Shown here piece after piece: positions 20,188 to 56,705 of a stretch of DNA of 63,343 nt. Each line of letters starts with the position of its first letter. Position 1 is the first letter of the stretch. Source of the DNA: a virus (lineage: Duplodnaviria; Caudoviricetes); IMG/VR virus record IMGVR_UViG_3300012927_000007, positions 1-63,343 of that record. One strand, 5' to 3'. The position numbers were made by a program, and so were the translations under genes. A model generated the notes under the pieces. It was not told where the DNA came from and searched no databases. It saw only the letters and a list, made by a program, of their open reading frames with translations.

Positions 20188-20216
20188 TTGACTTTGTTGT
20201 CCAGACGGTCTACAAG
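20188..20216 (+). promoter_or_regulatory. sigma70 early promoter with operator box in spacer
   Basis: TTGACT-17 nt-TACAAG; GTTGTCCA at 20196. Confidence 0.65.
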
Positions 20217-20244
20217 TACACCCATCGACAACGCAGGAGAGCAT

Positions 20245-37176: not shown

Positions 37177-37827
37177 CTATGGCCCCCCGACCGTAGGCAT
37201 GATAACGCGGTTCGTATCCGCGTTGACGACCCCGGTCAGGTTGCGCGTCGCGGGAGCCATTCCAGATGATGACCGCAAGGACTGTGCCGCCTGCTGTACC
37301 ACGGGGTGCTGCATAGCCTCACGAGAGGCACGCAGGGTAGCCGCAGCCGAGGACGCATCATTGTTCGCCAAGTGTGACAGCGCATCTTTCACCGCACTGA
37401 TCGCGCGCGCCCCCAGCGTGATGACTTCCCCACCATCCGCGTATTTCTTTTTCGCTCGTCCGCCCATCTTCGCTTTGAGCTTGGGCAGCTTTACTTTCGC
37501 GCCGGCCATGTGCTGATCGATATTGTGCATCGTGTCCATGAGAGGCACGCGCGGCATGCGCATGCGCCCCGCGTTGCCGATTGGGTTTCCCAACTTGGGT
37601 AAGCTTGCGCGCATGCCCATCGGGTTACCCACGAGGGACGCAAGCGGCGAGATCGCGCCTCCGGCTGCGTGGTGTTGCATCGCGTGACTCAACAGTGCAG
37701 AGCCTTCGTCGGCGCGATTGAATTCTTGCGCAATGGCTTGTGAGGGCGCGTGTTTGAGCCCGCTGGGGTGCCATCCGTGCGCAATGCCCGCCATCAAACG
37801 TGCTTGCCGGGAACTTTTAGACGGCAT
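37177..37827 (-). CDS. basic virion-associated protein with AxGG motifs
   Basis: MPSKSSRQARLMAGIAH start; HAAGG, AKMGG, YADGG. Confidence 0.7.
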   Translation of the reverse strand: MPSKSSRQARLMAGIAHGWHPSGLKHAPSQAIAQEFNRADEGSALLSHAMQHHAAGGAISPLASLVGNPMGMRASLPKLGNPIGNAGRMRMPRVPLMDTMHNIDQHMAGAKVKLPKLKAKMGGRAKKKYADGGEVITLGARAISAVKDALSHLANNDASSAAATLRASREAMQHPVVQQAAQSLRSSSGMAPATRNLTGVVNADTNRVIMPTVGGP

Positions 37828-37828
37828 A

Positions 37829-40800
37829 TCAGTGTGCCCCTTGCGCGGCGTGTGTTGAGTCCTCGGTGCCCCCCGCGCCCCAGTTAAGGTACTTGCCTAG
37901 CGCGGAACCCTCCCCTGCGACTTTAGCGAGGCCCATGGGCGCAATCAGCGCAGGGTCAGTAACGGCATCCGTTGCGGTCTCCCCCAGACTTTGCGCAGGC
38001 GCTACCCCGGCGGCCTTCTGCAACCGCTGCTTGAGCTGACTCAAGCGTGTTGCTGCGTCATCGGACCATTGCAGATGAGGAGACGAGGTGCCTTGCGGCC
38101 CGGGTCCATTGAGTTTGTTGATCAACGCGATGAGATTGTGCGGAGTCGCCGCGACCGCATCTAGCGCGCCCGCAGGCGTACCCCCTTGGGATGGGGTCCA
38201 GGCCCGCCCCCCGAGAGCCGGGTTACCTTGGGCGTCCAACCCATAGGCAAGGCTCGCGAGGTTGGTCGCAACCCGTGCACGAGGCTCCGCTTCTGAACTC
38301 ACCCCCATCTGGCGGGCCGCATCCGCCAATCGCCGGATAGAGGACTGTGTATCGTCCACGGGCGGCTTCTGGTGTTGGATGTAATCCCACTGGGCGTTGT
38401 GGAGTGCTTGCGCGTAAGCGTCCGCATGCTCTGGGGTATCAAACACCCCCAGGTGCTCCCCCGTTTTGTGGTAGTGCTCAATGGCTTGCTGCGGCGTGAG
38501 CTTCTGGCCATTGACCACCTGGGGGATCAACGTTTCGCCTTTGTCAGTACCAATAGACATCGACAGCGTCGTACTGATGCTGCCGTCTGGGTTCTGCAAT
38601 ACGGGGCGATCCCAGATGTCCTTGATGGTCCCCGGCTCTCGTAACCCCTCCGCAGCGGGGAGCTGCGGCGCTCCGCGCCCTACCAAGCCTCCATCCGCAT
38701 GTGCCTGGGGGCGAGTCAGCCCCCCTAGTGCGGGGTCGCTGGCGGGGACCGTAGGCGGTTGCAGGGGGGTAAGTGGCGGCGTCACAGGCACTTGCGCTGG
38801 ATCAGGAGCCTGCACGAGTGGCGGCCGGGGGCGATCCGGGAAGCGTGCTGCAATCGCGGTGTCCTGGGCCGCCCTCTGCTGCGTGAGGCGCTCCAGGAAC
38901 TCCTCCAGCTTCTGGGCCAGCTCCACGCGGCCACCCCCCGCGTACCCGGCGGACGCGGCGGGGTGCGCTGCCGAGTTCGTGCCCTCGGCGATTGAATCCT
39001 CGTACTTGCGGCGCGTCTCCTGAGTATCTCGGGCGGATGAGGTGAACAAATAGTTCCGCAGGGCCGCCAAAGCGTCGTGGATCGCGCCACTGACCCCGGG
39101 GGAGCCCGGGGAGGACGACCCTCGCGGAACCCCGCCCCCATCGGCATAACCGCGCTCACGCCGCAGTAGCGCCTCACGTAGCCGGTCGACTGGACTGCCC
39201 GTCGCGTTCCCCGGCCAGTCCACCCGCAGGTCGCCCGCGACCTTACGTAGCCGTGCGGCGGCTTGTCGACTGCGCTCAGCGAGTTGTGCGGGAGACGGCC
39301 CTTGGGGGACCGCATCCGTAAGCGTAGGCGCTCCAGGGGGCGTACGCATCTGCGCGCCCTTGGGGGATTTCGAGGGCGGCCGATACGTGACCGCGGGAGC
39401 CCCTACCGGAGGGCGTTGCGTGCCACCCTGCTCCAATACGTTCTCAAAGGGGATACCGCCGGCTTGCGGGGTGGGCGCCCCGGGCGGCGCGATGGAGAAA
39501 TCGCCCCACTTTTGCGGCCCCTGGAAATCAACCTCCGGCATTGGGGGACGCGAGATTTGCTCCCGCAGTTGCGCCAAACGGGCCGCCGCGGGGTGTTGTG
39601 CTCCAGCGGATTGCACATCGGGGGTCAGTCCCAAATTTTCCAACGTGCTGGGGGTGCTCGCGCCGCCGCCGGCATTGACCATCGACGGCGAGGGTAACAA
39701 TCCTGCGATCTGCGGGGTCACGGGTGAGCGGTTCCACCCTTCGGGCATCTTCCCGTGGTTGAAAAAGTAACTCAACTCAGGATTGGTGGAGGTCTGTGCA
39801 GCCAAATCCGGTCGCCCGCGTCGGAGGAGATCCGCCAGCTTTGCGCGTAGCATTGGGCCTGCTACAGCGCCCGCTATACCCCCTACGACAGGAACCCCCG
39901 CAAAGTGTCCCGCAGCTTCCCCAGCACCCGCGCCGAGCCCCGCCGCCATTAATCCCTCTGTTCCAGTAGCTGCCGCAGCAGGGAGCCCACTAGCAACGTG
40001 GCCCACGATAGCCGCGTTACCCGTCAACAAATGCGGGTTGCGCTCCGCAAGCTGCCCGTACACCCGCGCGTTAAAGTGCTCGCTACCTTGCGCCCCCTGC
40101 AAAGCTGCCTGTGCTTGGTAATTCTTGGCCATCTGCACGCGGGCCTGTAGCCATAGCGGAAGATCCACCCCGGGTTGCCGCCCCGCAAAATCCTCATAGG
40201 CATTCGCTAGGGAGTGGTACGCGTCCCCCAGCGCACCCTTATCCGGGTCATCTGACTTCCAGTGTGACTTGGCCCGCTCACGTGCTTCTCTGATGTTGGC
40301 GAATAGCTCATCCTTGGTGAAGTTAGGCTTAGCTAACATCGTCTCTTGGAGCGCTTCCACATCAGGGGAGCGTGGGAGCTGACTAACCTGCTGCGGTAAA
40401 TTACCCAGCGCGGTCTGCAGCTCAGGGTCTTGTGTCAAATGGTGCGGCAGCGCGTCCTCTGTCGCGTGGTATATACGCCCCGGCCCGACTTTGCGCGCGT
40501 TCTCCAGTGCTGCGACACTTGGCGTCTGCCCCGGCACAATGCCGGCATCCTTGGAAATCAACGTGTCTGTAACTGTTTGCGCCCCCGGGGACAAAAGATC
40601 CGCACGGGTGCGTAGCCCGGTGTAGCCGGCAGCTTCAGCGACTTCAGCCGGGGAGCGTGCAATGTTGGTTGTCGCGACGCGTTCAGGGAGCGCACCCCGG
40701 ACTCCCAACACCCCCGTGATATCCGGAATGGCTTCCTCAGTAGCCTCAAGCCCGGTGCGAAGCGCGGGCGACAAATCACCCTGGGCTTTTTCAACCCCGG

Positions 40801-41233
40801 TCCAATCCACCCCCTTCTGAATTCCCTGCTGCGCAAGGTCCACCCCCTGCACGAGCGGGTCATTCGAGGGCGGCAATTCTGTTGCATCGTTGACTGCGCT
40901 TCGCACTTTCTGTGCAGCCTCAGGGCCTCCGGCCATACCCGCATAGCCGCTTGCAACCTTACCCCCAAGTCGAGTAACCCCTTGGCCCAAGCGTTCCGCC
41001 ATGCCCACCCCGGGCAGGTCGCTCAGCGCTTTGACGATCTCCTCAGGACCCCACTCTTTGCGTAAACTCTTATGGCCGCCGTCCTCAGTGACTGCGTAGA
41101 ATCCTTTAGGCGGCGCCTTACCTTCCGGCCACGTGTCGCCTTCCTTGGGCGCGCTCGCAACCGGTTGCGCGGAGGTTAGATCAAACCCCCCGCTTTGGGG
41201 TACTGGCTGTGCGCTGGCGAGGTCGAATGCCAT
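37829..41233 (-). CDS. large internal virion/ejection protein
   Basis: 1134 aa, A/G/P/Q-rich, last in ejection cluster; FDLxSAQPV x2; YADGG/YAGGG/HADGG. Confidence 0.7.
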   Translation of the reverse strand: MAFDLASAQPVPQSGGFDLTSAQPVASAPKEGDTWPEGKAPPKGFYAVTEDGGHKSLRKEWGPEEIVKALSDLPGVGMAERLGQGVTRLGGKVASGYAGMAGGPEAAQKVRSAVNDATELPPSNDPLVQGVDLAQQGIQKGVDWTGVEKAQGDLSPALRTGLEATEEAIPDITGVLGVRGALPERVATTNIARSPAEVAEAAGYTGLRTRADLLSPGAQTVTDTLISKDAGIVPGQTPSVAALENARKVGPGRIYHATEDALPHHLTQDPELQTALGNLPQQVSQLPRSPDVEALQETMLAKPNFTKDELFANIREARERAKSHWKSDDPDKGALGDAYHSLANAYEDFAGRQPGVDLPLWLQARVQMAKNYQAQAALQGAQGSEHFNARVYGQLAERNPHLLTGNAAIVGHVASGLPAAAATGTEGLMAAGLGAGAGEAAGHFAGVPVVGGIAGAVAGPMLRAKLADLLRRGRPDLAAQTSTNPELSYFFNHGKMPEGWNRSPVTPQIAGLLPSPSMVNAGGGASTPSTLENLGLTPDVQSAGAQHPAAARLAQLREQISRPPMPEVDFQGPQKWGDFSIAPPGAPTPQAGGIPFENVLEQGGTQRPPVGAPAVTYRPPSKSPKGAQMRTPPGAPTLTDAVPQGPSPAQLAERSRQAAARLRKVAGDLRVDWPGNATGSPVDRLREALLRRERGYADGGGVPRGSSSPGSPGVSGAIHDALAALRNYLFTSSARDTQETRRKYEDSIAEGTNSAAHPAASAGYAGGGRVELAQKLEEFLERLTQQRAAQDTAIAARFPDRPRPPLVQAPDPAQVPVTPPLTPLQPPTVPASDPALGGLTRPQAHADGGLVGRGAPQLPAAEGLREPGTIKDIWDRPVLQNPDGSISTTLSMSIGTDKGETLIPQVVNGQKLTPQQAIEHYHKTGEHLGVFDTPEHADAYAQALHNAQWDYIQHQKPPVDDTQSSIRRLADAARQMGVSSEAEPRARVATNLASLAYGLDAQGNPALGGRAWTPSQGGTPAGALDAVAATPHNLIALINKLNGPGPQGTSSPHLQWSDDAATRLSQLKQRLQKAAGVAPAQSLGETATDAVTDPALIAPMGLAKVAGEGSALGKYLNWGAGGTEDSTHAAQGAH

Positions 41234-42607
41234 TTACTTCTTCACTTCTTCGTATGACTTGCCGTCCGGTGAGACGTACGCTTGATTGCCGTCCTTGTCG
41301 ATGTGAAGCGCCCAACCTTTGGCGTTTGTGGGCGCAGCGACACCCGCGGGGGTAGTCTTGGCTTTCGCTCCCGCTAACCCCTGCGAGGCAATGTACTGCT
41401 GCAGCGTCATGTCGGGGTTCTGCTCGTGGAGCTGCTCCAGTTTGGTCACGTCATTGTGCGAGAACGGCACCGACGTCCGCAACATGTTGACCATGTCCTG
41501 AATTTCGTCTTTTTGCTCTTGCGGTATTTTGGGGTTGTGCAGGTACGGCTCGATACCCTTCTCGACGATCTGCCGGTACTCCGCCAGTTTGTGAAGGCGC
41601 GTATATCCCGTATCCCCCTCACGCAATTCAAGTTTGCCGAAAACGTCATTGAGCCCTTGTGCCGTCTGCAAGCCGCCAGACTCCACCATTGCGAGGTTCT
41701 TAGCCAACCCCGGCAGCATCGTCATATAAGACTGCACCTCCTGCGGAGCCAGCTGGTTGGTCAGGACGCCTTTGGCGGAAGCAAACAAACTCTGCCCTGG
41801 AGATGCGCCCACGCCAAAGAACCCGGAAGAAGCTCCCGTGGGTAAATTCGTGATGTTATCCACCGCCGCGGTTGCCTCGTTCGCGGACGACAGCACCCGC
41901 TGGAACAGCGCACCGCTACGCGAGTCAAGTCCCGCGCCCTTCGTAGTCGGAGCCGGAGCACCGAATGGGGTTGCCTTACCCGTGGATGAATCTACCATGT
42001 AGGTTTGCTTGGCAGGAGTACCGTCAGGGCCGGCAACGTCGTGCTCCACCATGGAAAAGTGCGGGGTACCCGTGGTCGGCTTGGGCGGCTGCGCAGTAGC
42101 TCGCATCGCGGTATCTAACATCCTGCCTTGAGTCTTTTCCTGCAACTCCTGCAGCGCCAATCTGGCTTTCAAAGAATCCCGGTCGACCCCGGAGAGTTTT
42201 TCCGCAAGTCCCGTATCCTCGTCCCCCTGCTGCTGTTGGAACTGCTGATTCTGTTGGCGCCAGTCGGCTACCGCACCGGCCGCCTTGCTCCATTGATCCG
42301 GGATTCCGTGCGCAGATGGGGAGAGCATCGCCTGCGCGAATCGCAGTCCCAGCACGCTCGGATCCATACGCTGGGAGGCCAAGCGCTCGCGGGCCTGCTT
42401 CAACGCGTTGCGTGCTTCCTGTGCATTCGCATCGAAGTCCTGCAGGAGTGCCGCTTCGCCTTTGGTGTCGACCCCTTCCGGGTGCTGCTTGAGATAACTT
42501 TCCCCCCATGCGCGCCCCTCCGGGGATACCGGCGGCGCCTGTAGCGAGCCCAACGCGCTCTGCGGGGGCGCGTCGGTATCGTCGGTCACTGCGTCTAATG
42601 CGCTCAC
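41234..42607 (-). CDS. internal virion/ejection protein
   Basis: 457 aa, helical and Q-rich; C-terminal beta-hairpin module. Confidence 0.7.
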   Translation of the reverse strand: MSALDAVTDDTDAPPQSALGSLQAPPVSPEGRAWGESYLKQHPEGVDTKGEAALLQDFDANAQEARNALKQARERLASQRMDPSVLGLRFAQAMLSPSAHGIPDQWSKAAGAVADWRQQNQQFQQQQGDEDTGLAEKLSGVDRDSLKARLALQELQEKTQGRMLDTAMRATAQPPKPTTGTPHFSMVEHDVAGPDGTPAKQTYMVDSSTGKATPFGAPAPTTKGAGLDSRSGALFQRVLSSANEATAAVDNITNLPTGASSGFFGVGASPGQSLFASAKGVLTNQLAPQEVQSYMTMLPGLAKNLAMVESGGLQTAQGLNDVFGKLELREGDTGYTRLHKLAEYRQIVEKGIEPYLHNPKIPQEQKDEIQDMVNMLRTSVPFSHNDVTKLEQLHEQNPDMTLQQYIASQGLAGAKAKTTPAGVAAPTNAKGWALHIDKDGNQAYVSPDGKSYEEVKK

Positions 42608-43857
42608 GCCGCCCTCCGCAAATGATCCAAGCCGCTACGCGGTTTTGCGAACCGCCGCGTGGGGCCACCGCGCGCGCCGCCGCCAAGAGCGCTGCCGACC
42701 TGACCCGAATTGAGCCCCGCGTACAGCCCGATTGACTGACTCAGCGGGGAGGCGCCCGTTACGGGGGCGTACGCGGTATTTGAGCCTTGCGTCATCCCGG
42801 GGGTAGTCGTTGGGGTAGCCGTCCCCTGGAGCATCTGCGACAGCCAGGAAGCCTGCTGGTAGGGATATTGCTGTTGGTTCAAGAAGTCCTGATATCCCAA
42901 GTTGAGGTTCTGTTGGTTCTGCCCTTGCTGTTCTTGGCCCACGGTATCGAGCGCACCCGCGCCTTGTAGCCCCAGGCTCTGCCCCGTCTGGGCCAAAGTG
43001 CCGAGCGTATTGGCTCCTTGCAGACCCAGTGCGCCTTGCTCGTACCCGAGGCCACCACCAATCTGTCCCAGTGAGCCCAACGCACTGGCGCCTTGCAGCC
43101 CCAGCGAGCCCTGCTGACCTGCAATACTCGCAGCGGTAGATCCAAGTCCAGCCTCTTGCTGAGCACCCTGCAACCCCGCAGTCTGCGCCTGTTGGTATGC
43201 TTGACTGAGCGCAGCATTGCCCGTTGACTGGATGCTCTCCGCGAGCTGGTTAGCGCCTTGCGTCTGTGCCCGCAGGTCAGCGGACGAGCCGGATTGTCCC
43301 GCAGCCGCATATTGTTGTTGGATGGAAGGCTGCAGCTGGTTCTGCCAGAACTGCCCCGCCTGCGTCTCGGCCGCGCCGATCACGTTCTGCGCGTACGGGT
43401 TCATCTGCGCCGCAGTCGGACTGAGCGCGCTTTGGATCATGCTATTGGAGTTCGCCAAGTAGGGGGACGCCGCGCTGTATCCCGCGTTCGCCGTGCCCAA
43501 CGCACTTTGAATCCCCGCTTGCGCCTGCGGCAGATACCCCAACGCGCTGTTGATCGCGCCGGGCTGCGCAGAAGCACCCGCTAACGCACTGGCTTGATCC
43601 AGCGGTTGCTGATACTGCCCCTGCAGGTTCTGCACCGTTTGAGCCGCGCCCGTTTGCGCATCCGTCTGGGGGGCAATTCGTGGGCCACCGTAGGTTTGAT
43701 ACGGTTGGGATGCGACTGAATTAGCCTGCGCCAGAATGCCCTGCGTGTACTCTTGCAGCCACGTCGGGACGTTGCTTTGACTCTGGCTGTAGTTGGTCCC
43801 CTGCGCCGGGGTTTGCCCCTGGAACAGAAAACTCAGTGGGCTACCTGTGCTGCTCAT
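42604..43857 (-). CDS. ejection/pilot protein
   Basis: Q/A/G-rich, PYQTYGGPRIA, MNPYAQNV, YQDFLNQQQYP. Confidence 0.72.
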   Translation of the reverse strand: MSSTGSPLSFLFQGQTPAQGTNYSQSQSNVPTWLQEYTQGILAQANSVASQPYQTYGGPRIAPQTDAQTGAAQTVQNLQGQYQQPLDQASALAGASAQPGAINSALGYLPQAQAGIQSALGTANAGYSAASPYLANSNSMIQSALSPTAAQMNPYAQNVIGAAETQAGQFWQNQLQPSIQQQYAAAGQSGSSADLRAQTQGANQLAESIQSTGNAALSQAYQQAQTAGLQGAQQEAGLGSTAASIAGQQGSLGLQGASALGSLGQIGGGLGYEQGALGLQGANTLGTLAQTGQSLGLQGAGALDTVGQEQQGQNQQNLNLGYQDFLNQQQYPYQQASWLSQMLQGTATPTTTPGMTQGSNTAYAPVTGASPLSQSIGLYAGLNSGQVGSALGGGARGGPTRRFAKPRSGLDHLRRAA

Positions 43858-45942
43858 TTACTTGGCTCCCCCGCGCAGGTATGCCTCGGGCGCCTTGGAC
43901 TTCATGAACTGTTTCCCCTTCACGAGTTGTTTGCCGGCGTGCTTTCGCACTCGTACGCGCAACTGGTCCAAAGCCCGTGCGCCCGCCTCGTTGGAGCCGT
44001 TCCCCAGCATCGAGACGGTTCCGCCGTCCATCACGTACTCCCCGCCCGAGAGCTTGGCATCGACGTCATCAGAGGTCCCGTCCCCGTGGCCGGGGTCCGG
44101 CACGTAACTATCTCCTTGCGTGGAATCGAATGCCCCCCCGTGCGCCATGGTAGTAGCGCCGGGCAATATGGGTTGAATAGTCTTCATCCCTGGAGCGGTG
44201 CCCGGGGCGGCTACCCCTGGAGACGGCGTCACCGCCGGAGACGCCCCGGTGCCTGGGGACACTCCCGGTACGGTCGGGAGCTGGTTGTTGCTGAAGAAGC
44301 TCTGCTCCGGCCCTTGCCCATACGTGTACCAATTGGCGACGTTCGGTTGTGTGTACGAGCGGTTGTTGGTAGGAGTCGCGATCGACGGCGGCGGTCCGTA
44401 GCCGGCTGGCGTAGCCGGCGCGGAAGCCGCTTTGTTGCCGCCCAACGCCGCAGCAAGCAGGGGGGCCAATGCGCCATACTGCTGCAGGAGTTGCCCCATG
44501 GAGGAGACCCCGAGGGCGCTCCCCAAACCACTCAATGCGCCGCCTGATCCCAACACACTACCCGTCTGGGTGCTCAAGCCGGGGATTTTGGAGGTTTGCA
44601 ACGCAGGGTTATTGCCCTCTTGCAACCCGCCCGGCACGGGGTTCGCATTTTCATTGACGTTGAACTGGCTCCCGTCCGCGTTGTATCCGGTAGACGGGGT
44701 ATTGTTGTTCAGGTACTGCTGCAAATTCTGCTGGCTATCGTTAGGCGCCACCAAGCTGCTGTAATCCACCGGCGACGGTTGGTACAGGTCAGAGAGCGTG
44801 TTGGTGTAATCGGCATAATTGAGGTAACTACCGCCGTCCGCGAAATGTCGCTTGCGGTTGGCGAAGGACCCCTCGTACAACTGGCGCAGTCGTGCGCTGG
44901 TTTTTGAATTACGCTTCATAGATCCGCCCCGCGCTGCTTTGTTTGCTGACTTGCCCGTAGGCCCTTTGTTGCCCACTTGCTGTAAAAGCTGACTTGCTTG
45001 ATTGAATTGGTCGGGGACGTACTGCTGACCCCACCCCATGCTGGGTACCATACCCGTGCTGTAAACTAACTGTTGTATATTGGCGGGGATGTCTTTTTGC
45101 GATTGCCCAAGAAGCCCGTTTACTTGTTGAGCTATCTGGCCTTTGTCTCCGCTGGCAATGGCCGACTGAAGCGAGTTCTGTACGCCGCTCCAGTATTTCG
45201 GAGTCAGCTCCACTGCGGGAGTCTGAGTATCGAGATACCCTGACAGCAACATGCCGGCTATGGGGACGTACTGTCCAATCGTGCTAAGCGCGGTACCTGC
45301 GGCAGACCCTGCAGCGCTCCCTGCTCCAGCTCCCGCAGCGGCCCCACCAGCTCCGGCTCCTGTGCCAGCCAGGGAGCTTGCGGTGTTGTATAAATCGTAA
45401 GCGTTTAGAGCAGCCCCTCCGTACCCGCCAACTCCGCCCTTCTGCAACCCGGAATAAATCCCGAGCGCATCCCCTGCCATGCCAACCCCCGGCACCGTCC
45501 CGCTACCTCCGACAGTATTAGCCAGCTTGCCCGCGTTGATCGCAGCCCCGGCGTACCCCACCGGGGTTCCAGAACTCAAACCGCTGTAAATCCCCAACCC
45601 GGCCGCCGCCCCCGACAAGGCGCTATTGCCACCCGCCACGCTGTTCGCATCCGCTAATCCCTGCTTTGCCAGCCCCAGCGCTGGCGAAGGTCCACTTGAC
45701 CGCGCCGCAGGAGAGGGTGCCAGTGCTCCTGCAGGGTTCGTCGCAGGCGGGGAGGTCAGCGCGGAGGAGGGCGCCGGTGTGGTCTGCGTGGCTTGCGCTG
45801 TTGGGGGAGCTTGCGCCCCCTGCGGCGGGGACGAAGGCGCAGGCGCAGGATAGCTGCCCGCAATCGTATAGGAACCCCCGGACGATGGGGCAGGAGACCC
45901 GTACAGGCTGATCAACCGGCTCCACAGACCGTCGTTGCTCAT
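43858..45942 (-). CDS. Gly-zipper ejection protein with TMP-C-terminus-like domain
   Basis: Gly/Ala hydrophobic tracts; MAHGG...GDGTSDDVDAKLSGGEYV. Confidence 0.72.
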   Translation of the reverse strand: MSNDGLWSRLISLYGSPAPSSGGSYTIAGSYPAPAPSSPPQGAQAPPTAQATQTTPAPSSALTSPPATNPAGALAPSPAARSSGPSPALGLAKQGLADANSVAGGNSALSGAAAGLGIYSGLSSGTPVGYAGAAINAGKLANTVGGSGTVPGVGMAGDALGIYSGLQKGGVGGYGGAALNAYDLYNTASSLAGTGAGAGGAAAGAGAGSAAGSAAGTALSTIGQYVPIAGMLLSGYLDTQTPAVELTPKYWSGVQNSLQSAIASGDKGQIAQQVNGLLGQSQKDIPANIQQLVYSTGMVPSMGWGQQYVPDQFNQASQLLQQVGNKGPTGKSANKAARGGSMKRNSKTSARLRQLYEGSFANRKRHFADGGSYLNYADYTNTLSDLYQPSPVDYSSLVAPNDSQQNLQQYLNNNTPSTGYNADGSQFNVNENANPVPGGLQEGNNPALQTSKIPGLSTQTGSVLGSGGALSGLGSALGVSSMGQLLQQYGALAPLLAAALGGNKAASAPATPAGYGPPPSIATPTNNRSYTQPNVANWYTYGQGPEQSFFSNNQLPTVPGVSPGTGASPAVTPSPGVAAPGTAPGMKTIQPILPGATTMAHGGAFDSTQGDSYVPDPGHGDGTSDDVDAKLSGGEYVMDGGTVSMLGNGSNEAGARALDQLRVRVRKHAGKQLVKGKQFMKSKAPEAYLRGGAK

Positions 45943-46163
45943 AGCCGCACGCACTCTACGAACCGCTCAGCCCATAAGCGCCAGTCGGTATACCCCTCAG
46001 GTACGGGCGGGGAAAATCGCGCGACAGCCGGGATAGCAATTGTGCTGTAAGCCCACTCCAGCCAGTCATCCCCTAGCAATCGCATTGGCGGCGCAGAAGT
46101 CGCTAACGTCAAATTCACCGCATCCGTCCACTGGTGCAGAGTCATCTGGCGCGGGTCGATCAC
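45939..46163 (-). CDS. small tail-associated protein
   Basis: 74 aa, Trp-rich, coupled to nozzle gene. Confidence 0.6.
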   Translation of the reverse strand: MIDPRQMTLHQWTDAVNLTLATSAPPMRLLGDDWLEWAYSTIAIPAVARFSPPVPEGYTDWRLWAERFVECVRL

Positions 46164-47725
46164 TTGGTGTACCTCCCGTCTGTCTCCTCAACATGCGCCA
46201 GCGTATTCCCCAAGGTGTAATCCCCCCCGGGGGTGTTGCTCTCAAATTGGAACGCCAACAAACGCGCGTTCTGTTTCAGGTACGCCAGCTCCTGGTCGGT
46301 CGTGGTAATGGTCCCCGGGATAGTCACCAGCGGCGATTGGTCCTGCGTTACACGCGCGTTCGCCCGCGAGAACACGGATACTTTGAGGTCAGTTGCCGCA
46401 CTACCGATCGGGGTTAGATCAGGCTCGATCAAGCTTACCCGGTATGCCTTGTCCTTCGGGGGGTTGCGGGTAATGGGGGAAAACTCACTCGTCTTGAAAT
46501 ACGAGCGGATCGGGAATGTCGCACCAGAAGCTACTTTGTCCAGCCCCGTCTCATGCTGCCACAACGTGTACCCGGTGGAAGTCTGCACCAGATCCATGAA
46601 GTACGGCTTATTGAACACGCGCGGCGAGGTGCCCGCAGAGCGACTACCTCCACCGGTACCTGAGACCGCATCCGGCAGTGGCGTGTCGAACCATGTATTG
46701 AGATACGTGTTGAACACGATAGCCCAGTTGCATTCCGTAGCGCCAAACATCGGCGCGCACCACCAGATTTCCCCGAACGACTGCACCTTGATCGCGAATA
46801 CCTTCTGTCGCTGCGCAAAGTTCAGATTCTTGAAGAACCACTCCACATTCAAGTTGTTGGGCAACTCGCGCACGATACCGTTGAACAGTGAGAAGTGGTC
46901 CACCTCGGGCCAGTAGTAAATCCCGTCGAACTCGACAATAGATTGTGAGGACAGCACCGAGACTTCCGCCGAGATCGTGTTGAAATTGAACGGTATCCCC
47001 GCCAGCAATGCCGGGTTGTACGTCGCCACCACTAAGTCAGCCAGCGTCCAGAAGATAGCCGCAGGGCCGCCCGAGCCGTTACGCAACGGGAGGCCCTTGA
47101 CTACTTTCTGATCCGAAACGAACGCGGAGTTGAACGTCGACCCCGGGGTGATGTTGTTGATCTGCGAGATGTCGATCCGGCCATAATTGCTATACCCGAT
47201 CAGGTAAGGCGCAATCGCGACGACGCCACCACTCACGTTGGGCATACCGCTGGCGACTAACTTGCTAGTCGCAGCGGCGGGTCCGTAGAAAATCGGGGTC
47301 TCGACTGAACTGGTGATATCCACCAGATTCTGCCCCGGGCTGCCGACAATGGTCGTCTGCCCGCTGGTGGTGTCGTAGAACTGATCTAACATCCACAGGT
47401 TGTTGACGTTCGCGGTAAACCCGGAAGCCGGCGTACGGTCTGCTTGGAACCCCGGGTTGCCGAACTGATCCGACTGCACCTGCGTGCAGAAACTCTGCGA
47501 GCCTAAGTGGATGTAGTTCGTGCCGCCAAAGAAATACGCATCCATCCCCCGCACCACTTCGGGCAGTTGGGACGTGATCGATTTGTAGCCTGCGATCTTG
47601 CGTGGTAGCCCCCGTCGATTGAACCGCACCCATAGGCCGTCCTTGTACTCATCCCCTTCGAAAAGCGTGCCGTCCCGCTTGATCCCGGGTTTGGAGACGA
47701 TCTTGAAGGGCTCTGTCGTAGGCAT
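46160..47725 (-). CDS. tail nozzle/stabilisation protein (P22 gp10-like)
   Basis: 521 aa, beta-rich; PGIKRDGT, FGEIWW, WQHETG, IEPD. Confidence 0.75.
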   Translation of the reverse strand: MPTTEPFKIVSKPGIKRDGTLFEGDEYKDGLWVRFNRRGLPRKIAGYKSITSQLPEVVRGMDAYFFGGTNYIHLGSQSFCTQVQSDQFGNPGFQADRTPASGFTANVNNLWMLDQFYDTTSGQTTIVGSPGQNLVDITSSVETPIFYGPAAATSKLVASGMPNVSGGVVAIAPYLIGYSNYGRIDISQINNITPGSTFNSAFVSDQKVVKGLPLRNGSGGPAAIFWTLADLVVATYNPALLAGIPFNFNTISAEVSVLSSQSIVEFDGIYYWPEVDHFSLFNGIVRELPNNLNVEWFFKNLNFAQRQKVFAIKVQSFGEIWWCAPMFGATECNWAIVFNTYLNTWFDTPLPDAVSGTGGGSRSAGTSPRVFNKPYFMDLVQTSTGYTLWQHETGLDKVASGATFPIRSYFKTSEFSPITRNPPKDKAYRVSLIEPDLTPIGSAATDLKVSVFSRANARVTQDQSPLVTIPGTITTTDQELAYLKQNARLLAFQFESNTPGGDYTLGNTLAHVEETDGRYTK

Positions 47726-48261
47726 TACGAGTCCGCCGGGGGTATCAGGGGTTGTTGGGCCATTTGCTGCGCCTTCTGCTGCAGGACCCGCAGTCGGGCC
47801 TGGATGGCCGCACTGTCAACAGGGTCGCCGGTAGCGACCTTGCGGGGAAATTTACTCCCCGGTGCGGGCATGTTTTCGGACGCGGTTTGTCCCGGCACGT
47901 ACTTGCGGATTGCGCCATCCTTCATGAATTTGATATAGCTGGGCACTTTCAACTGCGCGGCCACTTGCAGGTCATCCGGGGAGAACAGCTGCCCATCCGC
48001 ATCATTGCCCGGGTGTGTATGGTAGATGCCCGCGATCTTCCACCCCTTCTGCACCATGGCTCGCAGCGCGAAGTGGTCGTGCTGCTGCGAGGGGATCGGC
48101 GTGGTCGAGAAATACTGCCCGTTTGGATGCTGCATGAGAAGTCCAGCGGATTCCTGGTCTCCATCACTAATACCGTGGAGCGCACTCCAAGCGCTCGTGT
48201 CGAGGTCGCCCTGGCCCGTGTCGTTGGGGTCTACAGATGCGGTAGGGAGTTGATTAGGCAC
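47725..48261 (-). CDS. JAB/JAMM (MPN+, DUF4329-like) metalloenzyme
   Basis: QESAGLL (catalytic E) and AGIYHTHP-x8-FSPDD (HxH...SxxD). Confidence 0.8.
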   Translation of the reverse strand: MPNQLPTASVDPNDTGQGDLDTSAWSALHGISDGDQESAGLLMQHPNGQYFSTTPIPSQQHDHFALRAMVQKGWKIAGIYHTHPGNDADGQLFSPDDLQVAAQLKVPSYIKFMKDGAIRKYVPGQTASENMPAPGSKFPRKVATGDPVDSAAIQARLRVLQQKAQQMAQQPLIPPADS

Positions 48262-48897
48262 TCAGGTCCACCGAATCACAGCTTTGCCGACGTTGCCCGC
48301 ACCGCTGGTAGATGCCACGTTGCCGCCTACTCCACCTGCGTTGCCCGTGCCGTTTGTCCCAACTATTCCCGCCGCTCCGGCGCCCGGTGTTCCCCCAGCG
48401 CCGTTGGCTCCGGTGTTGCCTGTCGTATTGGTTACGTTGCCGCCCGAAGCGGTGCCTCCCCCGCCCAACGTAGTGCCATTGTTAACACCGCTCACGGTGG
48501 TTGAGGTCGCGGGGGCGCCGCCTTTGCCGCCGCCTGCGCTCATCGTTGTGAACGTGCCGGAGAAGGTGCCTGCAGCGATTGTTACGCCAGTACCCCCGTT
48601 GCCTTGCACTCCCGCTGTAACAGAAGCGCCCCCGGTTCCTATGGTCAGTGTGAACGTTTGGCCAGAATGTCCCGACACCGGCACCGAACTCTTGTTATAC
48701 CCGCCCGATCCGCCGCCCGCTCCGGTTCCAGAACCAGAACTGAAACCTCCGCCGCCTGCCCCAGTATCGCCGAAACCTTCCATCGTGGCCGTAGTGGCGC
48801 CCGGAGGTATCGCCGGAGACTGCGAGGTCGTAAACGTTTGCGTGAACGCAACGAACGGCGCACCAGAGGCCAGAAGTACATTGAAAATGCCAGTCAC
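48262..48897 (-). CDS. Gly-rich tail-fibre tip / receptor-binding adhesin
   Basis: GTGA-coupled to fibre; GAGGGSGGY poly-Gly loops. Confidence 0.72.
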   Translation of the reverse strand: MTGIFNVLLASGAPFVAFTQTFTTSQSPAIPPGATTATMEGFGDTGAGGGGFSSGSGTGAGGGSGGYNKSSVPVSGHSGQTFTLTIGTGGASVTAGVQGNGGTGVTIAAGTFSGTFTTMSAGGGKGGAPATSTTVSGVNNGTTLGGGGTASGGNVTNTTGNTGANGAGGTPGAGAAGIVGTNGTGNAGGVGGNVASTSGAGNVGKAVIRWT

Positions 48898-51677: not shown

Positions 51678-51678
51678 G

Positions 51679-52341
51679 TCAATCCTCGTTGCGCACGGCG
51701 GCGCGGTCTACAGAGCGCATCAAGTCTTCCTTCTCCAGAGTCGAGACCGCCTCTTCATATAGGGGTTGCCACGTCTGCATGCGCTCGTCGTTCTTCAAAA
51801 ACGGGGTGCACTCCATCAACGTGCGGTACAACAAGGTCTCCGGGGCGTAGCTGGTCCAGAAGTTCGTCTGGTTCGAACTGTCGAGGAGTTGCGGCAATCC
51901 GTAGTAGAGGATCTGCCACGGGTAGGCAATTACCGGCGTCGGCACGATGAGCCAGTGCGCGTAGTCGTAGTCCGCGTAGTACATCGGCTGCGCCGTCAAG
52001 GTGAGGTCAGGCCAGTAGCTCAAGCAGTACTCGTACTGTCGCGCAAATAGCGGTGTCGCGGAATTCTGCGCAGCGTCCGCCGGGGTCGCGATACCGAAGT
52101 TCATCGAGATCGTACGACGCCAGCCGTTCGGCTTGGTGTACACCGCGTTGCCCGCGGCTAGTGCCCCAACGATGGGGATGTTCATCCCGAGGATCTTGAG
52201 ACGCCGCGCAATCGCCCGCTCCGCGTTGTTGATCAACAGCGGGAAGAGGTTGAAAACGGTGGGGTCAGTCGTGCCGCTCCCACGTTCAAGATAGGCTTGC
52301 AAATTCGAGATCAACGAGTTGAACGTGAGAGCGACAGGCAT
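51679..52341 (-). CDS. head-tail adaptor-like protein
   Basis: LINNAERAIARRLK, QTNFWT.YAP..LLY..L.E..PFLKNDER. Confidence 0.7.
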   Translation of the reverse strand: MPVALTFNSLISNLQAYLERGSGTTDPTVFNLFPLLINNAERAIARRLKILGMNIPIVGALAAGNAVYTKPNGWRRTISMNFGIATPADAAQNSATPLFARQYEYCLSYWPDLTLTAQPMYYADYDYAHWLIVPTPVIAYPWQILYYGLPQLLDSSNQTNFWTSYAPETLLYRTLMECTPFLKNDERMQTWQPLYEEAVSTLEKEDLMRSVDRAAVRNED

Positions 52342-52551: not shown

Positions 52552-52561
52552 TTCGTCCTCT

Positions 52562-53089: not shown

Positions 53090-53091
53090 GA

Positions 53092-53553
53092 TTACACCCC
53101 ATCCAGAAACAAAGCTTTTTCGAGTTGTCTACGCCGCAGCAGCCCCGCATTAGGCGCGCCGTTAACGTGGTCCCACGCCAGGAACTGCTCCGCGGCCGGG
53201 CCAATCTGTCCATTGTTGAGTAAATGCAGCAGGGTGGATTCCACCCATACTTCCCCCGTGCGGTGCTCCAAGACGACCGTGCCGGCGTTGTATGCAAGGC
53301 TCACCAGCGCATCAAACTGGTGCTGGGTCAGGGGGACTTTCACATCGTGGGTGACGCCGGTTTCCTCCACCGCAAGATCCCCCATGAGCCAATCCAGCGC
53401 CTTCTGTGGAGTGCACGTGGTGCTCTCCGTGACGTCGGACCCTGTGTGTCCCCACCCCGCCGTGAGTACCCCTCCGGAATCCCGGTAAGCCTTGTCGCGG
53501 TAGTTCTCAAAAAACTGGATTATTGCAATACCTAAAGGACTGGTACGCATCAC
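53092..53553 (-). CDS. endolysin, GH24 lysozyme
   Basis: FENYRDKAYRDSGGVLTAGWGHT (E-x8-D-x5-T), QFDALVSLAYN, GLLRRR..E. Confidence 0.92.
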   Translation of the reverse strand: MMRTSPLGIAIIQFFENYRDKAYRDSGGVLTAGWGHTGSDVTESTTCTPQKALDWLMGDLAVEETGVTHDVKVPLTQHQFDALVSLAYNAGTVVLEHRTGEVWVESTLLHLLNNGQIGPAAEQFLAWDHVNGAPNAGLLRRRQLEKALFLDGV

Positions 53554-53903: not shown

Positions 53904-53906
53904 GGG

Positions 53907-54194: not shown

Positions 54195-54198
54195 AGCG

Positions 54199-55290
54199 TT
54201 ACCGTGTGTAAGCTCGGATGTTAGGGCGCATCATGACGGGAGACGAGTCTGTTTCAGACGCCCACCCTTCCGCCCAGCGGTCCTTGTCTTCTTGCAGAAG
54301 AGCCGCTTTATCCGTATCGCTCATTCCCTTGGCGATCTCGGGGATCATGAACATCAACTCTTTGGCAGTGCGGGTGAGGATCGCGAGAAACCAGCGCTGA
54401 GGCACTTCAATCGTCTGCGTCAGCGTCCCCACATCCTGCACGTAGCGCTGCACGTACAATACGATCTGGGAGAACGTGAACTGCAACTGCGGTGAAGGCC
54501 ACAACGTCAGAGTCGGTTGCGGGATGCTTTTGTTGTACCAAAACTCAAGCGGCCGCCCCTGGAACCACTTGTTAGGGTAGTTTGAATAATTATCCCGGTT
54601 GATCTTCGCGATGGGGATTTCCTGTGGAGCCGCCCCCGTCACGAACTCCGTCACGTTGAGTGTCGTACCCCCAGAAGCCTGCAGCCGTACGTACAGAACG
54701 CCAGCTTCGGGGATGCCCTGCACATCTATCCACTGCCATTGACCGGTGATCGCAGCCAGCGCGGTGTTGGTGTAGATCGGCGTGAAAGTGATTCCGTCCG
54801 TGGAGGTCTGAATAGCGACGCTCCATGTTCCCGTCGCGTTGGGTAGAATACCAAAGACGACCGGTTGCCCCGCCCCCGGGAATTGCACGGTGAGCGCGCC
54901 GTTGGGTGCAGTCTGCGTGCACGCGGTCGCTAGGTTATTGTCGAACGCGTTAGCCGCGACGCCCCCCGCTGAAGAGGTGTAGATGATGCCCGGCGCGGGA
55001 AGCTGTAACTGCGTGATGTTGCGCAGGTTGGCGTTGAGAACATCCACCGTGCCCAGCGGCGCGAGCACATCCTGGACCGCATCGTAGATCGGCAGGACGA
55101 CTTTCTGGACCGCCCAGAGCGCGACGCCTTTGGAGGCGAGCGTCGACAGCGCGAGGTACAACAGATCCTGCGCAATCGCGATGTATTCGGGGGTGATCTT
55201 CTGTGGAGCGAGCTGACTCCGGCCGAAAGCCCGATCTATTAATTTTCCAGTGTTGAATACAGTAGTCGACACCGTCCCGGAGGTAGTCAT
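54199..55290 (-). CDS. head-tail connector-like protein with inserted jelly-roll domain
   Basis: MTTSGT..F...LIDRAF, INRDNYSNYPNK..GRP..FW, LWP.P, VPQRW. Confidence 0.7.
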   Translation of the reverse strand: MTTSGTVSTTVFNTGKLIDRAFGRSQLAPQKITPEYIAIAQDLLYLALSTLASKGVALWAVQKVVLPIYDAVQDVLAPLGTVDVLNANLRNITQLQLPAPGIIYTSSAGGVAANAFDNNLATACTQTAPNGALTVQFPGAGQPVVFGILPNATGTWSVAIQTSTDGITFTPIYTNTALAAITGQWQWIDVQGIPEAGVLYVRLQASGGTTLNVTEFVTGAAPQEIPIAKINRDNYSNYPNKWFQGRPLEFWYNKSIPQPTLTLWPSPQLQFTFSQIVLYVQRYVQDVGTLTQTIEVPQRWFLAILTRTAKELMFMIPEIAKGMSDTDKAALLQEDKDRWAEGWASETDSSPVMMRPNIRAYTR

Positions 55291-55763
55291 ACAGACACAT
55301 GCCGCCAAGTTTTACGACGCAGTACGTCAGAAATCCCCTGTTGCGATATACCGAATTGCTGGCCAATAGCCTTCTGCGTCCACCCGTTTTGGTGGAGCAT
55401 AAAGATATCAACAATCCGCTCCTCTACTAAGACTGCGCTGCCTTGGTCACTACCACGCGCAGGAGTAAAGCGACCCTTTCGCAACATGTCGTCTGTATTG
55501 TCTTGAAAAGTACCTAAGAACAAGTGCTTAGGGTTAACACACGCACGATTGTCACAGCGGTGCAATACGCACTTGGCTGGTGGGATGGGGCCTTTGAACA
55601 ACTGCCAAGCGATTCGGTGCGCTAGGTGCTGAAGCCACTTGCCCTCACGTTTCACCCCAAAAGCCCCGTAGCCCGGCCCCCGCGTAGCGCCTACCCAAAG
55701 CCAGCATGTGGGGGTCTTCCGCACTTTGGAAAGGAACCGAGGTTTGATGCCCGAGGTGGCCAA
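55287..55763 (-). mobile_element. free-standing HNH homing endonuclease with C-terminal HTH
   Basis: CWLW.G, GYG, AHRIAW, VLHRCDNRACVNPKHLFLGT..DN. Confidence 0.9.
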
Positions 55764-55766
55764 GTC

Positions 55767-55791
55767 GCGCGCTCCTTAAGTGGAAGCGCGC
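55767..55791 (-). promoter_or_regulatory. hairpin occluding the HNH RBS
   Basis: GCGCGCTTC-CACTTAA-GGAGCGCGC; AAGGAG lies 8 nt before TTG. Confidence 0.65.
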
Positions 55792-55967
55792 CTGCACAAC
55801 GATCGCGGCACACTAGCGGACGAAAGTTCCCGCCAGCAGCGAGCCTAGCGGCTTGAACTTCACGTTACAAGAGCGAGAGCCCCCAAAAAATATTTCGCAA
55901 AAGCGTCCATTTCCCCCTCGCCCACGGCGTCTATAGAGAAGGAACCTAGGAAGACACGGACGTCACC

Positions 55968-56705
55968 CTACTTTACCCCGTGCCCGCGCGGCGGGGCCGT
56001 ACGCACATGCTTGGCCACCTCCTGCTTGGCGATCCGGCGTGCGGGCACCGGGCCGCCCCCAGCGCGCGCCAGAGGTCCTGGGCCGGGCATGGGCAAGGGG
56101 TGACGCATCGGCAGCTGGGGGCGCGCAGGCAGCCCCTGAGGCCGCATCCCCATACGTCCGCCCAGGCCCCCGGGGGGCATCGCATTGACCATCGGAGGCA
56201 TAACCGCCCCGCCAGGGGCGTACATCGCACCGCCGGCGTTCTTGTGCGGGATCTTGCCGCCATGCTTGTAATCCGGGCCGCCCGCGGGAATGTGCGTCGA
56301 ATCATGCACAGAGCCCCCGCCCGCGAAGGTCTCCGCGTGCTTCTCCGCCGCCGAATACGAGTGGCTCACTGAGTGCGTCCGACCACCCTTCGCGTGGAAA
56401 TGCTTGTGCACGTGGAAGTGCTTGGTAGGGCCCCCTTTCTTGAAGCCTGCGGTGAGGGGCGTTTTGCCGCCGTGCTCGGCGAGCTCCACCGTGGGGGCCT
56501 CCTTACGCAACGTGGCGGCGTTGCCCTGCATACGATTGCCTTCTTTCGGGTAAACCTCCGCATGGCCGGGGTTGGTGTCGACCTTGTCGACCGGGCCGCC
56601 GCGCGCGAGCCGGTTGAGCGTACTGCCGGTGCCGCCCCCGATCGAGCCGCCGTCCCAGTGGTGGTGTCCCCGGAGAGCCCGCGAGGTATCTTTAAAGCCT
56701 GACAT
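55968..56705 (-). CDS. basic disordered protein with ~10 xxGG repeats
   Basis: LARGG, FKKGG, HAKGG, FAGGG, YKHGG, KNAGG, YAPGG, RAGGG. Confidence 0.75.
   Translation of the reverse strand: MSGFKDTSRALRGHHHWDGGSIGGGTGSTLNRLARGGPVDKVDTNPGHAEVYPKEGNRMQGNAATLRKEAPTVELAEHGGKTPLTAGFKKGGPTKHFHVHKHFHAKGGRTHSVSHSYSAAEKHAETFAGGGSVHDSTHIPAGGPDYKHGGKIPHKNAGGAMYAPGGAVMPPMVNAMPPGGLGGRMGMRPQGLPARPQLPMRHPLPMPGPGPLARAGGGPVPARRIAKQEVAKHVRTAPPRGHGVK

Follow-up and report, generated by a model that had tools for sequence, protein, structure and literature searches.

The window, by which we mean the whole stretch of 63,343 nt that was analysed, is a complete, podovirus-like phage genome of 63 kb. This phage has been seen only in metagenomic data, and both the presence of its proteins in the virion and their ejection are predicted from its genes. 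Genes were called heuristically, as the longest ORFs inside strand blocks, giving 103 proteins (19,831 aa). These include a SU10-type adaptor of 220 aa (PF24175) and a virion structural protein of 521 aa (46160..47725, (−) strand; phrog_3287) which has the position and naming of P22 gp10 and two of whose matches are annotated 'phage stabilization protein'. This gp10-like gene is followed by a 74-aa gene and then by the genes for proteins B, C, G, D and E. Their location directly after a gp10-like gene, like that of the P22 ejection proteins gp7, gp20 and gp16, together with the family matches given below, identifies the block as one of the P22 ejection-protein type. From their sequences B, C, D and E are probably head-internal, ejected proteins.

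A short Gly-Gly motif had been reported in six of the encoded proteins, here called A to F, in a first-pass annotation of the window, and all of the peptides listed there are present in the corresponding translations. The ORF coordinates given there also hold, except for the start of protein B, where the longest ORF begins at 45954 (GTG) and not at 45942. The genes and motif copies described in this and the following paragraph all lie on the (−) strand. Protein B (43858..45954), an ejection-type protein rich in Gly, Ala and Ser, is 698 aa long from this longest start, whereas its entry in the sequence collection is a 464-aa call. It carries AARGGSM (nt 44917-44937), FADGGSY (nt 44824-44844) and MAHGGAF (nt 44128-44148), the last of which opens a conserved C-terminal module. 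The C-terminal 109 aa of B match tape-measure PHROGs weakly (phrog_6090, E 2.5e-4; phrog_5448, E 0.016; phrog_25241, E 0.12); the PF09718 profile has no match in the window. Protein C (417 aa, 42604..43857) is Gln-rich, ejection-type and matches a 'DNA ejection protein' (phrog_4287, E 2.8e-5); its motif, GARGGPT (nt 42658-42678), lies about 20 residues from the C-terminus, and relatives of C have YARGGHA, LKDGGHV or LKKGGMV at the same place. Protein G (457 aa, 41234..42607), from the same gene block, is motif-free and has a single GG.

Protein D (1134 aa, 37829..41233) is modular. Its N-terminal domain (residues 1-695) is followed by YADGGGV (motif 1, nt 39128-39148) and a helical module, by YAGGGRV (motif 2, nt 38924-38944), which stands between helical modules, and by HADGGLV (motif 3, nt 38681-38701), after which come a folded domain (residues ~887-954) and a C-terminal module. 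D matches 'DNA transfer proteins' from P22-like and epsilon15-like phages over residues 860-951. Protein E (216 aa, 37177..37827) contains HAAGGAI (nt 37651-37671) and YADGGEV (nt 37423-37443), and across 8 homologues its A54, G56 and G57 do not vary. The motif is also found in two small His-rich proteins of the head module. Protein A (245 aa, 55968..56705) is basic, rich in His, Gly and Pro, and without a family in Pfam or PHROG; it has eight GG motifs, the strict copies FAGGGSV (nt 56307-56327) and YAPGGAV (nt 56202-56222) and the looser copies LARGGPV, FKKGGPT, HAKGGRT, YKHGGKI, KNAGGAM and RAGGGPV. Protein F (121 aa, 516..881), encoded between the portal gene and a scaffold-like gene, contains YAHGGSV (nt 789-809).

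Written strictly as [YFHM]-A-x-G-G-x-[VIMFY], the pattern has 11 matches in the 103 called proteins. Shuffling residues within each protein, which keeps the Gly content, gave 0.31 matches on average and never more than 4, and fixing every GG dipeptide while moving the other residues gave a mean of 0.58; 11 or more matches were reached in 0 of 2000 shuffles in either case, figures that overstate the significance because the pattern was picked after the data had been seen. The gap between the observed count and the shuffle means is large even for a pattern chosen post hoc. Ten of the 11 matches fall in proteins A to F (2,831 aa, 67 GG sites), as against a single one in the remaining 17,000 aa (141 GG sites), that is 10/67 per GG site versus 1/141. 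The exception outside the virion module, FAGGGVV (20254..20274, (−) strand), occupies residues 7-13 of ORF 19975-20292, for which no homologue was found in the seven other genomes (E below 1e-4), and may be a chance occurrence. When all six frames of the window were scanned with the last position widened to [VIMFYL], all 11 matches lay in called coding frames and none elsewhere. In the first pass the motif had not been noticed to recur in replication proteins, and none of those identified carries a copy: Prim-Pol/AAA_25, PolA with UDG, the PD-(D/E)XK nuclease, AAA_24, DUF669 and SNF2 are all motif-free. All synonymous codons occur in the motif, roughly at genomic proportions, and this ordinary codon use therefore points to selection at the level of the peptide rather than of the DNA.

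With the gp10-like gene as a synteny anchor twelve related loci were found, and comparisons were made across the window and seven other genomes, all eight being complete or nearly so. A six-frame scan of the eight gave 69 matches. By our own tally about 60 of these are encoded in the sense frame within the structural block, in A, B, D, E and F homologues or in their positional equivalents; a terminally redundant contig contributes one site to this number twice, once from each end. The other nine are in short alternative-frame segments, antisense, or in ORFs that could not be placed. The motif is kept in homologues at 30-40% identity and also in positional equivalents without detectable similarity. 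In protein B the three GG sites are retained in 82-84 of 84 homologues while their flanks vary; homologues of A and F in G001-G004 retain their motifs (YAKGGSV in F); and in G005 and G010 unrelated motif-rich ORFs occupy the position of A, just upstream of a 369-aa gene. Cultured relatives are found in the Caulobacter phages of the GB2A group, which have the core virion genes in common with the window. In this group A, D, E and F are absent, the structural genes contain no strict motif and, of the motif sites, GB2A retains only the A-R-G-G of B. A virion of this kind can therefore do without the motif. Among the genomes compared, none of the core structural genes tracks its presence or absence.

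The position of the motif at module junctions, also proposed in the first-pass annotation, is borne out by the relatives, in which modules are truncated, swapped or inserted at motif points. Protein D of G003 terminates 41 residues past motif 1, and in G002 the motif-1 module of D is found at the N-terminus of the E homologue. Relative to G001 and G004, residues 852-958 of D in the window are an insertion directly after motif 3; in protein P0093 YAKGGRV and a Cys-rich module are added exactly where other D proteins end, and P0106 begins MNGYAKGGDI, with the motif at residues 4-10. Swappable motif-bearing modules tend each to carry a copy of their own. An AlphaFold2 model of D places all three motifs in coil, within segments of pLDDT below 50 or at their margins, and beside a domain with pLDDT of ~96. 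We conclude that a short linear motif under selection occupies the disordered linkers between the modules of B, C, D and E and is present in the small proteins A and F as well, and consider with good confidence that aromatic/Met-Ala-x-Gly-Gly-x-Val/Ile is a genuine junction label.

What reads this label is a separate question, for which the first pass had offered a JAB protein and an analogy with ubiquitin-like modifiers. The window encodes a JAB (JAMM) metalloprotease-like protein of 178 aa (47725..48261, (−) strand; PF14464 at 31.6 bits) among its tail genes. It contains HTHP...SPDD, thus having the E...HxH...S..D residues of JAMM metalloproteases, and E37, H81, H83, S94 and D97 do not vary across 18 sequences, so that from sequence it looks catalytically intact. 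It is stand-alone, with PF14464 and PF14220 and no NlpC/P60 domain. JAMM enzymes cut after the C-terminal GG of ubiquitin-like proteins. Modules of a ubiquitin-like protein and a JAB protein in phage tails (lambda gpI and gpK) were reportedly described by Iyer, Burroughs and Aravind in 2006, and the JAB-domain protein of the window, too, stands among tail genes; unlike those modules, the window has no ubiquitin-like fold preceding the GG. The intact signature, the place among tail genes and the specificity of JAMM enzymes, together with the case of lambda, where gpH has the motif, an unknown enzyme cleaves this protein and gpK contains a JAB domain, would favour a JAMM protease that treats the motif as it would a ubiquitin tail, with a cut following Gly-Gly. 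The distribution of the gene argues against it. JAB is present in three of the eight complete genomes (the window, G001 and G004) and was not found in the other five (G002, G003, G005, G009 and G010), yet all eight have the motif; the gene goes together instead with an ORF (48262-49008) that is Gly-rich and fibre-like and whose homologues are in G001 and G004 only. JAB is thus an accessory gene, dispensable within the clade. The T5 genome, moreover, has no Prok-JAB match, lambda gpK serving as positive control, yet T5 cuts at such a motif, and its cut precedes Ala instead of following GG. The ubiquitin analogy does not survive either: the motifs are in disordered linkers and do not end a folded ubiquitin-like domain, no ubiquitin-like family was found in the motif carriers by the Pfam scan, and conservation does not extend to C-terminal GG ends (38 of 84 B homologues). 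Reading by JAB is in our view very improbable.

Short peptides common to several packed proteins are known from other viruses. In T4, a capsid targeting sequence is common to unrelated internal proteins that enter the head and are later injected; this label stands at the N-terminus, and the prohead protease removes it by cutting at a Leu/Ile-x-Glu site. The motif of the window is likewise a short peptide on otherwise unrelated proteins, predicted to be packed or injected, but it is internal, repeated and centred on Gly-Gly, and no prohead protease is recognisable. The cysteine proteases of adenovirus, African swine fever virus and poxviruses mature core proteins at GG-X or AG-X; for vaccinia the abstract of PMC4837287 gives an Ala-Gly-X cleavage site. 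These systems (adenain, pS273R and I7L) resemble the window in that many internal virion proteins have a small Gly-containing site in common, and differ in their recognition residues and in requiring a virus-encoded protease of the adenain/Ulp1 kind, of which none was found among the 40 Pfam-scanned proteins of the window.

The motif finds its closest parallel in tape-measure proteins, in their Gly-rich C-terminal region. The T5 tape-measure protein pb2 is cut after R1127 according to PMC10038345, and the sequence directly after R1127 is AEGGMMY; a six-frame scan of a 25-kb T5 stretch with the relaxed pattern gave just this AEGGMM site and one other match. In lambda, the cut in gpH is made within the Gly-rich C-terminal part, PMC12617516 giving site and enzyme as unknown; this part contains HFATGGF and GYATGGYV. 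In both phages, then, an A-x-G-G-x-hydrophobic peptide occurs in a protein that leaves the virion via the tail channel, and the weak tape-measure matches of B are in its motif-led C-terminal module. The window phage differs in being short-tailed, in having up to eight copies per protein in six proteins, small head-module proteins among them, and in the residue before Ala, which is aromatic here and Arg in T5. In P22, the ejection proteins of which resemble those of the window also in the family matches of C and of the D domain, the record states that the host enzyme OpdA removes 20 residues from gp7, at ...SYPE|KGGKGGA. This site lacks the Ala of the window motif; a six-frame scan of 20 kb of P22 gave three relaxed matches, one in the C-terminal Gly run of gp7, and the aromatic-A-x-G-G-x-V motif is absent from gp7, gp20 and gp16.

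Several explanations can be set against these data. That the motif is a functionless by-product of low-complexity, Gly-rich sequence would fit the composition of its carriers and the post hoc definition of the pattern. The shuffles, even with GG positions fixed, the persistence of the motif at 30-40% identity or beyond detectable similarity, and the near-invariant GG sites of the 84 B homologues make this almost certainly wrong, and Gly content, which might have undone the first-pass observation, does not account for it. An intrinsic hinge or turn without a dedicated reader would allow extended threading of Gly-Gly joints through the tail channel and refolding into an envelope conduit, the conserved Ala and Val serving the refolded structure itself. 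The absence of a reader among our findings, the linker position between helices and domains, and the occurrence in narrow-channel proteins (ejection-type here, tape-measure in lambda and T5) are in keeping with such a hinge. However, a plain hinge needs no aromatic residue, Ala and Val at fixed spacing, only 1 of 141 GG sites elsewhere has the pattern, and the small, motif-crowded A and F are hard to square with threading; we regard it as rather unlikely.

A tentative alternative, nearly as likely as cleavage, is an uncut docking or loading tag. The motif would fold into a small turn with the aromatic residue and Val side by side and plug into a pocket of a core head or portal-vertex component, possibly the scaffold-like 368-aa protein, the capsid protein, the portal or the gp10-like hub; cargo modules would thereby be brought into the procapsid or kept close to the portal up to the time of ejection, and accessory cargo would have copied a motif that core protein B had used first. 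The compact 7-residue form, the variation in the flanks, conserved hydrophobics on either side of the GG, disordered context and many copies (8 in A, 3-4 in D) fit docking as well as they fit processing. Docking needs no protease, in agreement with the scans; GB2A, with all the core virion genes and only the A-R-G-G of B, is what cargo hitch-hiking on a core site may leave; and P0106 has the motif at its extreme N-terminus, where a cut would free almost nothing. On the other hand, no partner emerges from the core structural genes, the sole biochemical event mapped at such a motif is the cut in T5, and tape-measure proteins carry the motif but are not head-loaded, so that one common head partner cannot explain both.

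We favour, at a probability of roughly 0.4 and by analogy with T5, lambda and P22, the reading of the motif as a maturation or processing site for a protease other than JAB. It would account for an enrichment that withstands the Gly-content and GG-placement controls, for the concentration in the same virion proteins across genomes, for selection on the peptide and for junctions in coil beside a well-modelled domain where relatives exchange modules; the three cutting precedents and the weak tape-measure matches of the motif-led module in B point the same way. Several observations weigh against it. Scans of 40 proteins each with Pfam (about 60 small ORFs being set aside) and with PHROGs yielded no protease apart from the accessory JAB, in agreement with the first-pass remark that no prohead protease is recognisable, and the 'protease' PHROG names on the capsid protein come from matches covering only the capsid part of fused families. 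The gene order is P22-like, and to our knowledge P22-type heads mature without a prohead protease. The precedents are not in one register, since T5 has Arg before Ala and P22 gp7 has no Ala; comparison of the B family with the gpH C-terminus by hhalign was negative (probability 1.4%), which leaves the tape-measure link to a short motif and weak PHROG matches; and the GB2A group does without A, D, E and F and without a strict motif in its structural genes.

Under the processing reading, cleavage of B, D and the other carriers would take place at A-x-G-G or beside it, in the manner of T5 pb2 at R1127|AEGGMM. The protease would come from the host or be a phage product beyond the recognition of the libraries; the host is an option because OpdA trims P22 gp7 and because the title of a 1973 T5 paper names host involvement in tail-protein cleavage. 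Modules would be released as separate pieces after cutting, and it would therefore matter little whether a given module is encoded fused to its neighbours or split from them.

Every peptide on which the first-pass annotation had founded a di-glycine motif was recovered in the translations. In its strict form ([YFHM]A.GG.[VIMFY], a GG-centred heptapeptide of the aromatic-Ala-x-Gly-Gly-x-Val type) the motif occurs 11 times in the 103 called proteins of the window, and 10 of these copies are in the proteins flagged as carriers, here called A (55968-56705), B (43858-45954), C (42604-43857), D (37829-41233), E (37177-37827) and F (516-881). The excess goes beyond glycine content: counted with the same regular expression, within-protein shuffles give 0.31 expected copies and shuffles with every GG fixed give 0.58, and in neither case did any of 2000 shuffles reach 11. 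The full motif occupies 10 of the 67 GG sites in the flagged proteins compared to 1 of the 141 in all remaining proteins. Since automatic gene callers disagree with our 103 manual calls (a GC3-based caller shares 72 and a length-based caller 61), gene-call-free six-frame counts were used; six-frame translation of the window yields no match outside the called coding frames. The strict pattern was fitted after the data had been seen and more weight was therefore given to an independent test in relatives.

With the 521-aa protein as query, 12 loci were found in the viral contig collection (37-88% identity), and seven complete or nearly complete relative genomes were compared together with the window, eight genomes in all. 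Their six frames include 69 strict matches. About 60 of these read in sense frame with a homologue of A, B, D, E or F, or with a large ORF in an equivalent position. In two distant genomes, G005 and G010, ORFs located at the position of A, just upstream of the 369-aa gene, have no detectable similarity to A and carry 2, 2 and 3 motifs. A by-product of chance, devoid of function, is extremely improbable. Among 84 homologues of B, GG is retained in 82-84 at each of three sites, Ala is found two residues before GG in 74, 4 (69 have Asp) and 75 of them respectively, and the residue ahead of that Ala differs between sites. From this pattern of retention, the invariant core can be read as A/D-x-G-G-x-hydrophobic. 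An aromatic residue precedes it in 50 of 62 aligned instances and the flanks have little information content. Ala, Gly and Val are each encoded by all four of their codons, in approximately genomic proportions, and the constraint is therefore on the peptide; a DNA-level recombination signal was rejected on the same codon diversity. A ubiquitin-like GG-x tail ending B, E and lambda gpH was also considered and rejected (38/84 B homologues). In the 64.5-kb contig G003, the same part of the A gene is present at both ends (L030 1-230 and the end of L033); this repeat represents terminal redundancy, though the record's own classification is linear, with no end repeats.

The window record (63,343 bases) is rated complete and its structural genes lie on the minus strand, wrapping round the record ends. 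In transcription order they run from the large terminase (4741-6231) and the portal (1482-4058; weak PHROG match) through the His-rich F to a scaffold-like 368-aa protein (61767-62873), for which there is only a weak protein-atlas "scaffold" lead (0.86), proteins of 192 and 222 aa, the major capsid protein (59519-60439; PF25209), the motif-rich A, an HNH endonuclease (55287-55763) inside the structural block, the 369-aa protein and the endolysin (53092-53553). These are followed by an SU10-type adaptor (51679-52341; PF24175), a 927-aa tail protein, a fibre-like Gly-rich ORF (48262-49008; weak "minor tail protein" PHROG matches), the JAB protein (47725-48261; Prok-JAB match) and the 521-aa protein, relatives of which bear the annotation "phage stabilization protein", the name given to P22 gp10. 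A 74-aa protein and then B, C, G (457 aa, 41234-42607, with no motif), D and E close the order. The PHROG match of C is "DNA ejection protein", and for residues 860-951 of D the matches are to "DNA transfer proteins" from P22-like and epsilon15-like phages. Such an arrangement, in which a block of ejection proteins follows the tail hub, is that of a short-tailed phage. Searches of the six carriers against Pfam and PHROGs gave no family except weak matches for C and E. No meaningful hit came from comparing the sequences of B and D with those of solved structures, and neither megablast of 20 kb against cultured phages nor tblastn of A returned a match.

Several other genes deserve mention. The replication genes (Prim-Pol helicase, PolA-UDG fusion, PD-(D/E)XK nuclease, AAA_24, DUF669 and SNF2) stand apart from the structural block; the PolA-UDG fusion (25385-27913, plus strand) is a single 842-aa protein that combines a uracil-DNA glycosylase-superfamily domain at its N-terminus with a 3'-5' exonuclease domain and a family A DNA polymerase. 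The gene for an Sf6-type small-terminase-like protein (14552-15175, minus strand; PF20901, E 2.7e-31) lies some 8 kb away from that of the large terminase, and the ORF immediately upstream of the latter has no family match. The HNH endonuclease gene is probably a mobile insertion since it has no homologue in the four close relatives and only a weak one in G009. In the 192-aa head-module protein (61177-61755, minus strand), residues H62, C64, D73, H131, H132 and E139 do not vary among seven genomes whose copies are 31-91% identical. Pfam, PHROGs and the protein atlas gave nothing for it; a fold search of the PDB found no match, and one of BFVD matched uncharacterised viral proteins only. It is also present in Caulobacter phage GB2A, a phage that lacks the motif, and could be an unrecognised enzyme. 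F and A are very His-rich small proteins encoded among the head genes (with runs such as HEHHGHGKHGH and HFHVHKHFH), which might bind metal or condense DNA within the head.

The cultured Caulobacter phages GB2A, RW, RLK and KcrB have core virion genes in common with the window (31-74% identity). By BLASTP none of A, D, E, F, G and JAB has a match in them, and their structural genes include no strict motif, the A-R-G-G site of B alone being left. On this comparison the motif-bearing set is accessory cargo on a conserved virion. No core structural gene was found to track the motif at the BLASTP level.

The motif had been described as separating modules, and this is borne out by truncation, transfer, insertion and addition at motifs in relatives. 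In G003, D ends 41 residues past motif 1, and in G002 the motif-1 module begins the E homologue. The folded domain of D (852-958) is an insertion immediately after motif 3 relative to G001 and G004. The protein P0093 has an extra YAKGGRV and a Cys-rich module exactly at the usual end of D; another, P0106, starts with MNGYAKGGDI and has D-like, A-like and E-like modules in series with a motif at every joint. Motif sites thus coincide with points of rearrangement. When residues 640-1134 of D were modelled with AlphaFold2 (28-row alignment, mean pLDDT 59), the three motifs came out as coil, within or bordering segments of pLDDT <50 that lie between helices and ahead of a confident domain (pLDDT ~96); a fold search with this model found no PDB match at E <=0.001. 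The confident domain itself is small (~887-954; 38372-38572, minus strand), is shared with the DNA transfer proteins mentioned above and has no PDB match. Metagenomic proteins that share only the folded domain of D carry SLT, M23 or lysozyme domains, which fits an injected cell-wall-degrading cargo.

It had been proposed that the motif is read by the JAB protein, a JAMM metalloprotease-like protein, or by another phage-encoded processor. The JAMM residues are invariant in 18 homologues of JAB, which also matches PF14220 (DUF4329). The Prok-JAB model detects the gene in the window, G001 and G004 and in the fragment G006, with no match in the complete genomes G002, G003, G005, G009 and G010, all five of which retain the motif; the window JAB protein as query found nothing in G002, G003 or G005. 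The adjacent Gly-rich ORF, and no other gene, has the same distribution as JAB, and the two form a two-gene cassette (47725-49008, minus strand) in the window, G001 and G004 only. With this distribution JAB is best assigned to a variable cassette of tail-fibre genes and probably does not read the motif; that it cleaves at the motif is very improbable. A JAB-E complex prediction with separate alignments scored 0.00, which is uninformative either way. Speculatively, JAB might serve in tail-fibre assembly or remove host ubiquitin-like tags from tail proteins. An attractive association of the motif with JAB that had little backing is thereby removed.

Comparable sequences occur in well-studied phages. 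T5 pb2 is cut after R1127, between ...FVPR and AEGGMMYPG, the position of the cut being that given by Linares et al. (2023). AEGGMM is one of two matches to a relaxed pattern in the six frames of a 25-kb stretch, and T5 has no Prok-JAB match. In lambda gpH, HFATGGF (733) and GYATGGYV (778) fall in the unresolved part of the C-terminal fragment, and both site and catalyst of gpH cleavage are unknown according to the 2025 Ur-lambda paper (PMC12617516). Lambda has just two strict matches in its six frames: GYATGGYV and HAGGGKI (nt 14210), the latter in the stretch upstream of K. In that region (L055, 14139-14443) a Prok-JAB match is split into two pieces in different reading frames, one inside the annotated K and the other just ahead of its annotated start. 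Three tape-measure PHROGs are weakly matched by the last 109 residues of B, a segment beginning with MAHGGAF, and B's homologue in the Caulobacter phage bears a tape-measure annotation. The lack of a match in the window to PF09718, the lambda tape-measure C-terminal family, and a negative hhalign comparison of the B family with the gpH C-terminus count against a deeper tape-measure link. According to its record, P22 gp7 loses 20 residues to host OpdA (junction ...SYPE and KGGKGGA), and a possible host cleavage of gp20 is mentioned in a review (PMC8954989).

The motif is a label placed at module junctions; its reader we infer. Our favoured reading, to which we give a probability of about 0.4, is that the ejection proteins would be cut at or adjacent to A-x-G-G, the protease being one other than JAB and perhaps of the host. 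It is favoured because cleavage is the one event so far mapped at a motif of this kind and because cutting would equate fused and split gene arrangements. A docking tag that remains uncut is a somewhat doubtful alternative, nearly as likely as processing, and agrees both with the failure to find a protease other than JAB in 40 proteins scanned against Pfam and 40 against PHROGs and with the N-terminal motif copy of P0106. A hinge with no reader at all is improbable. A broader form of the processing reading, equally hard to credit at present, holds that A-x-G-G-x-hydrophobic might be a general maturation site of tape-measure and ejection proteins, cut before Ala by a conserved host peptidase and not a phage enzyme. 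Proteins travelling through the tail channel of long-tailed and short-tailed phages would then be matured at one motif, and new injected cargo would be joined to an existing ejection protein through one extra motif copy. If true, this would name the site of the gpH to gpH* cut and narrow the search for the enzyme. The motif's likeness to the T5 pb2 cut site and to the Gly-rich region of lambda gpH bears on the question of gpH cleavage and suggests a specific, cheap test.

The motif belongs with a known class, the peptide labels on packaged phage proteins, and searches of open-access text found no description of it on ejection or tape-measure proteins among the papers listed. To our knowledge, little is understood of the way short-tailed phages choose and load their injected proteins or of how they gain cargo modules. 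A seven-residue label on every such protein provides an experimental handle, by mutation or reporter fusion, and could be used to predict injected proteins in uncultured phages.
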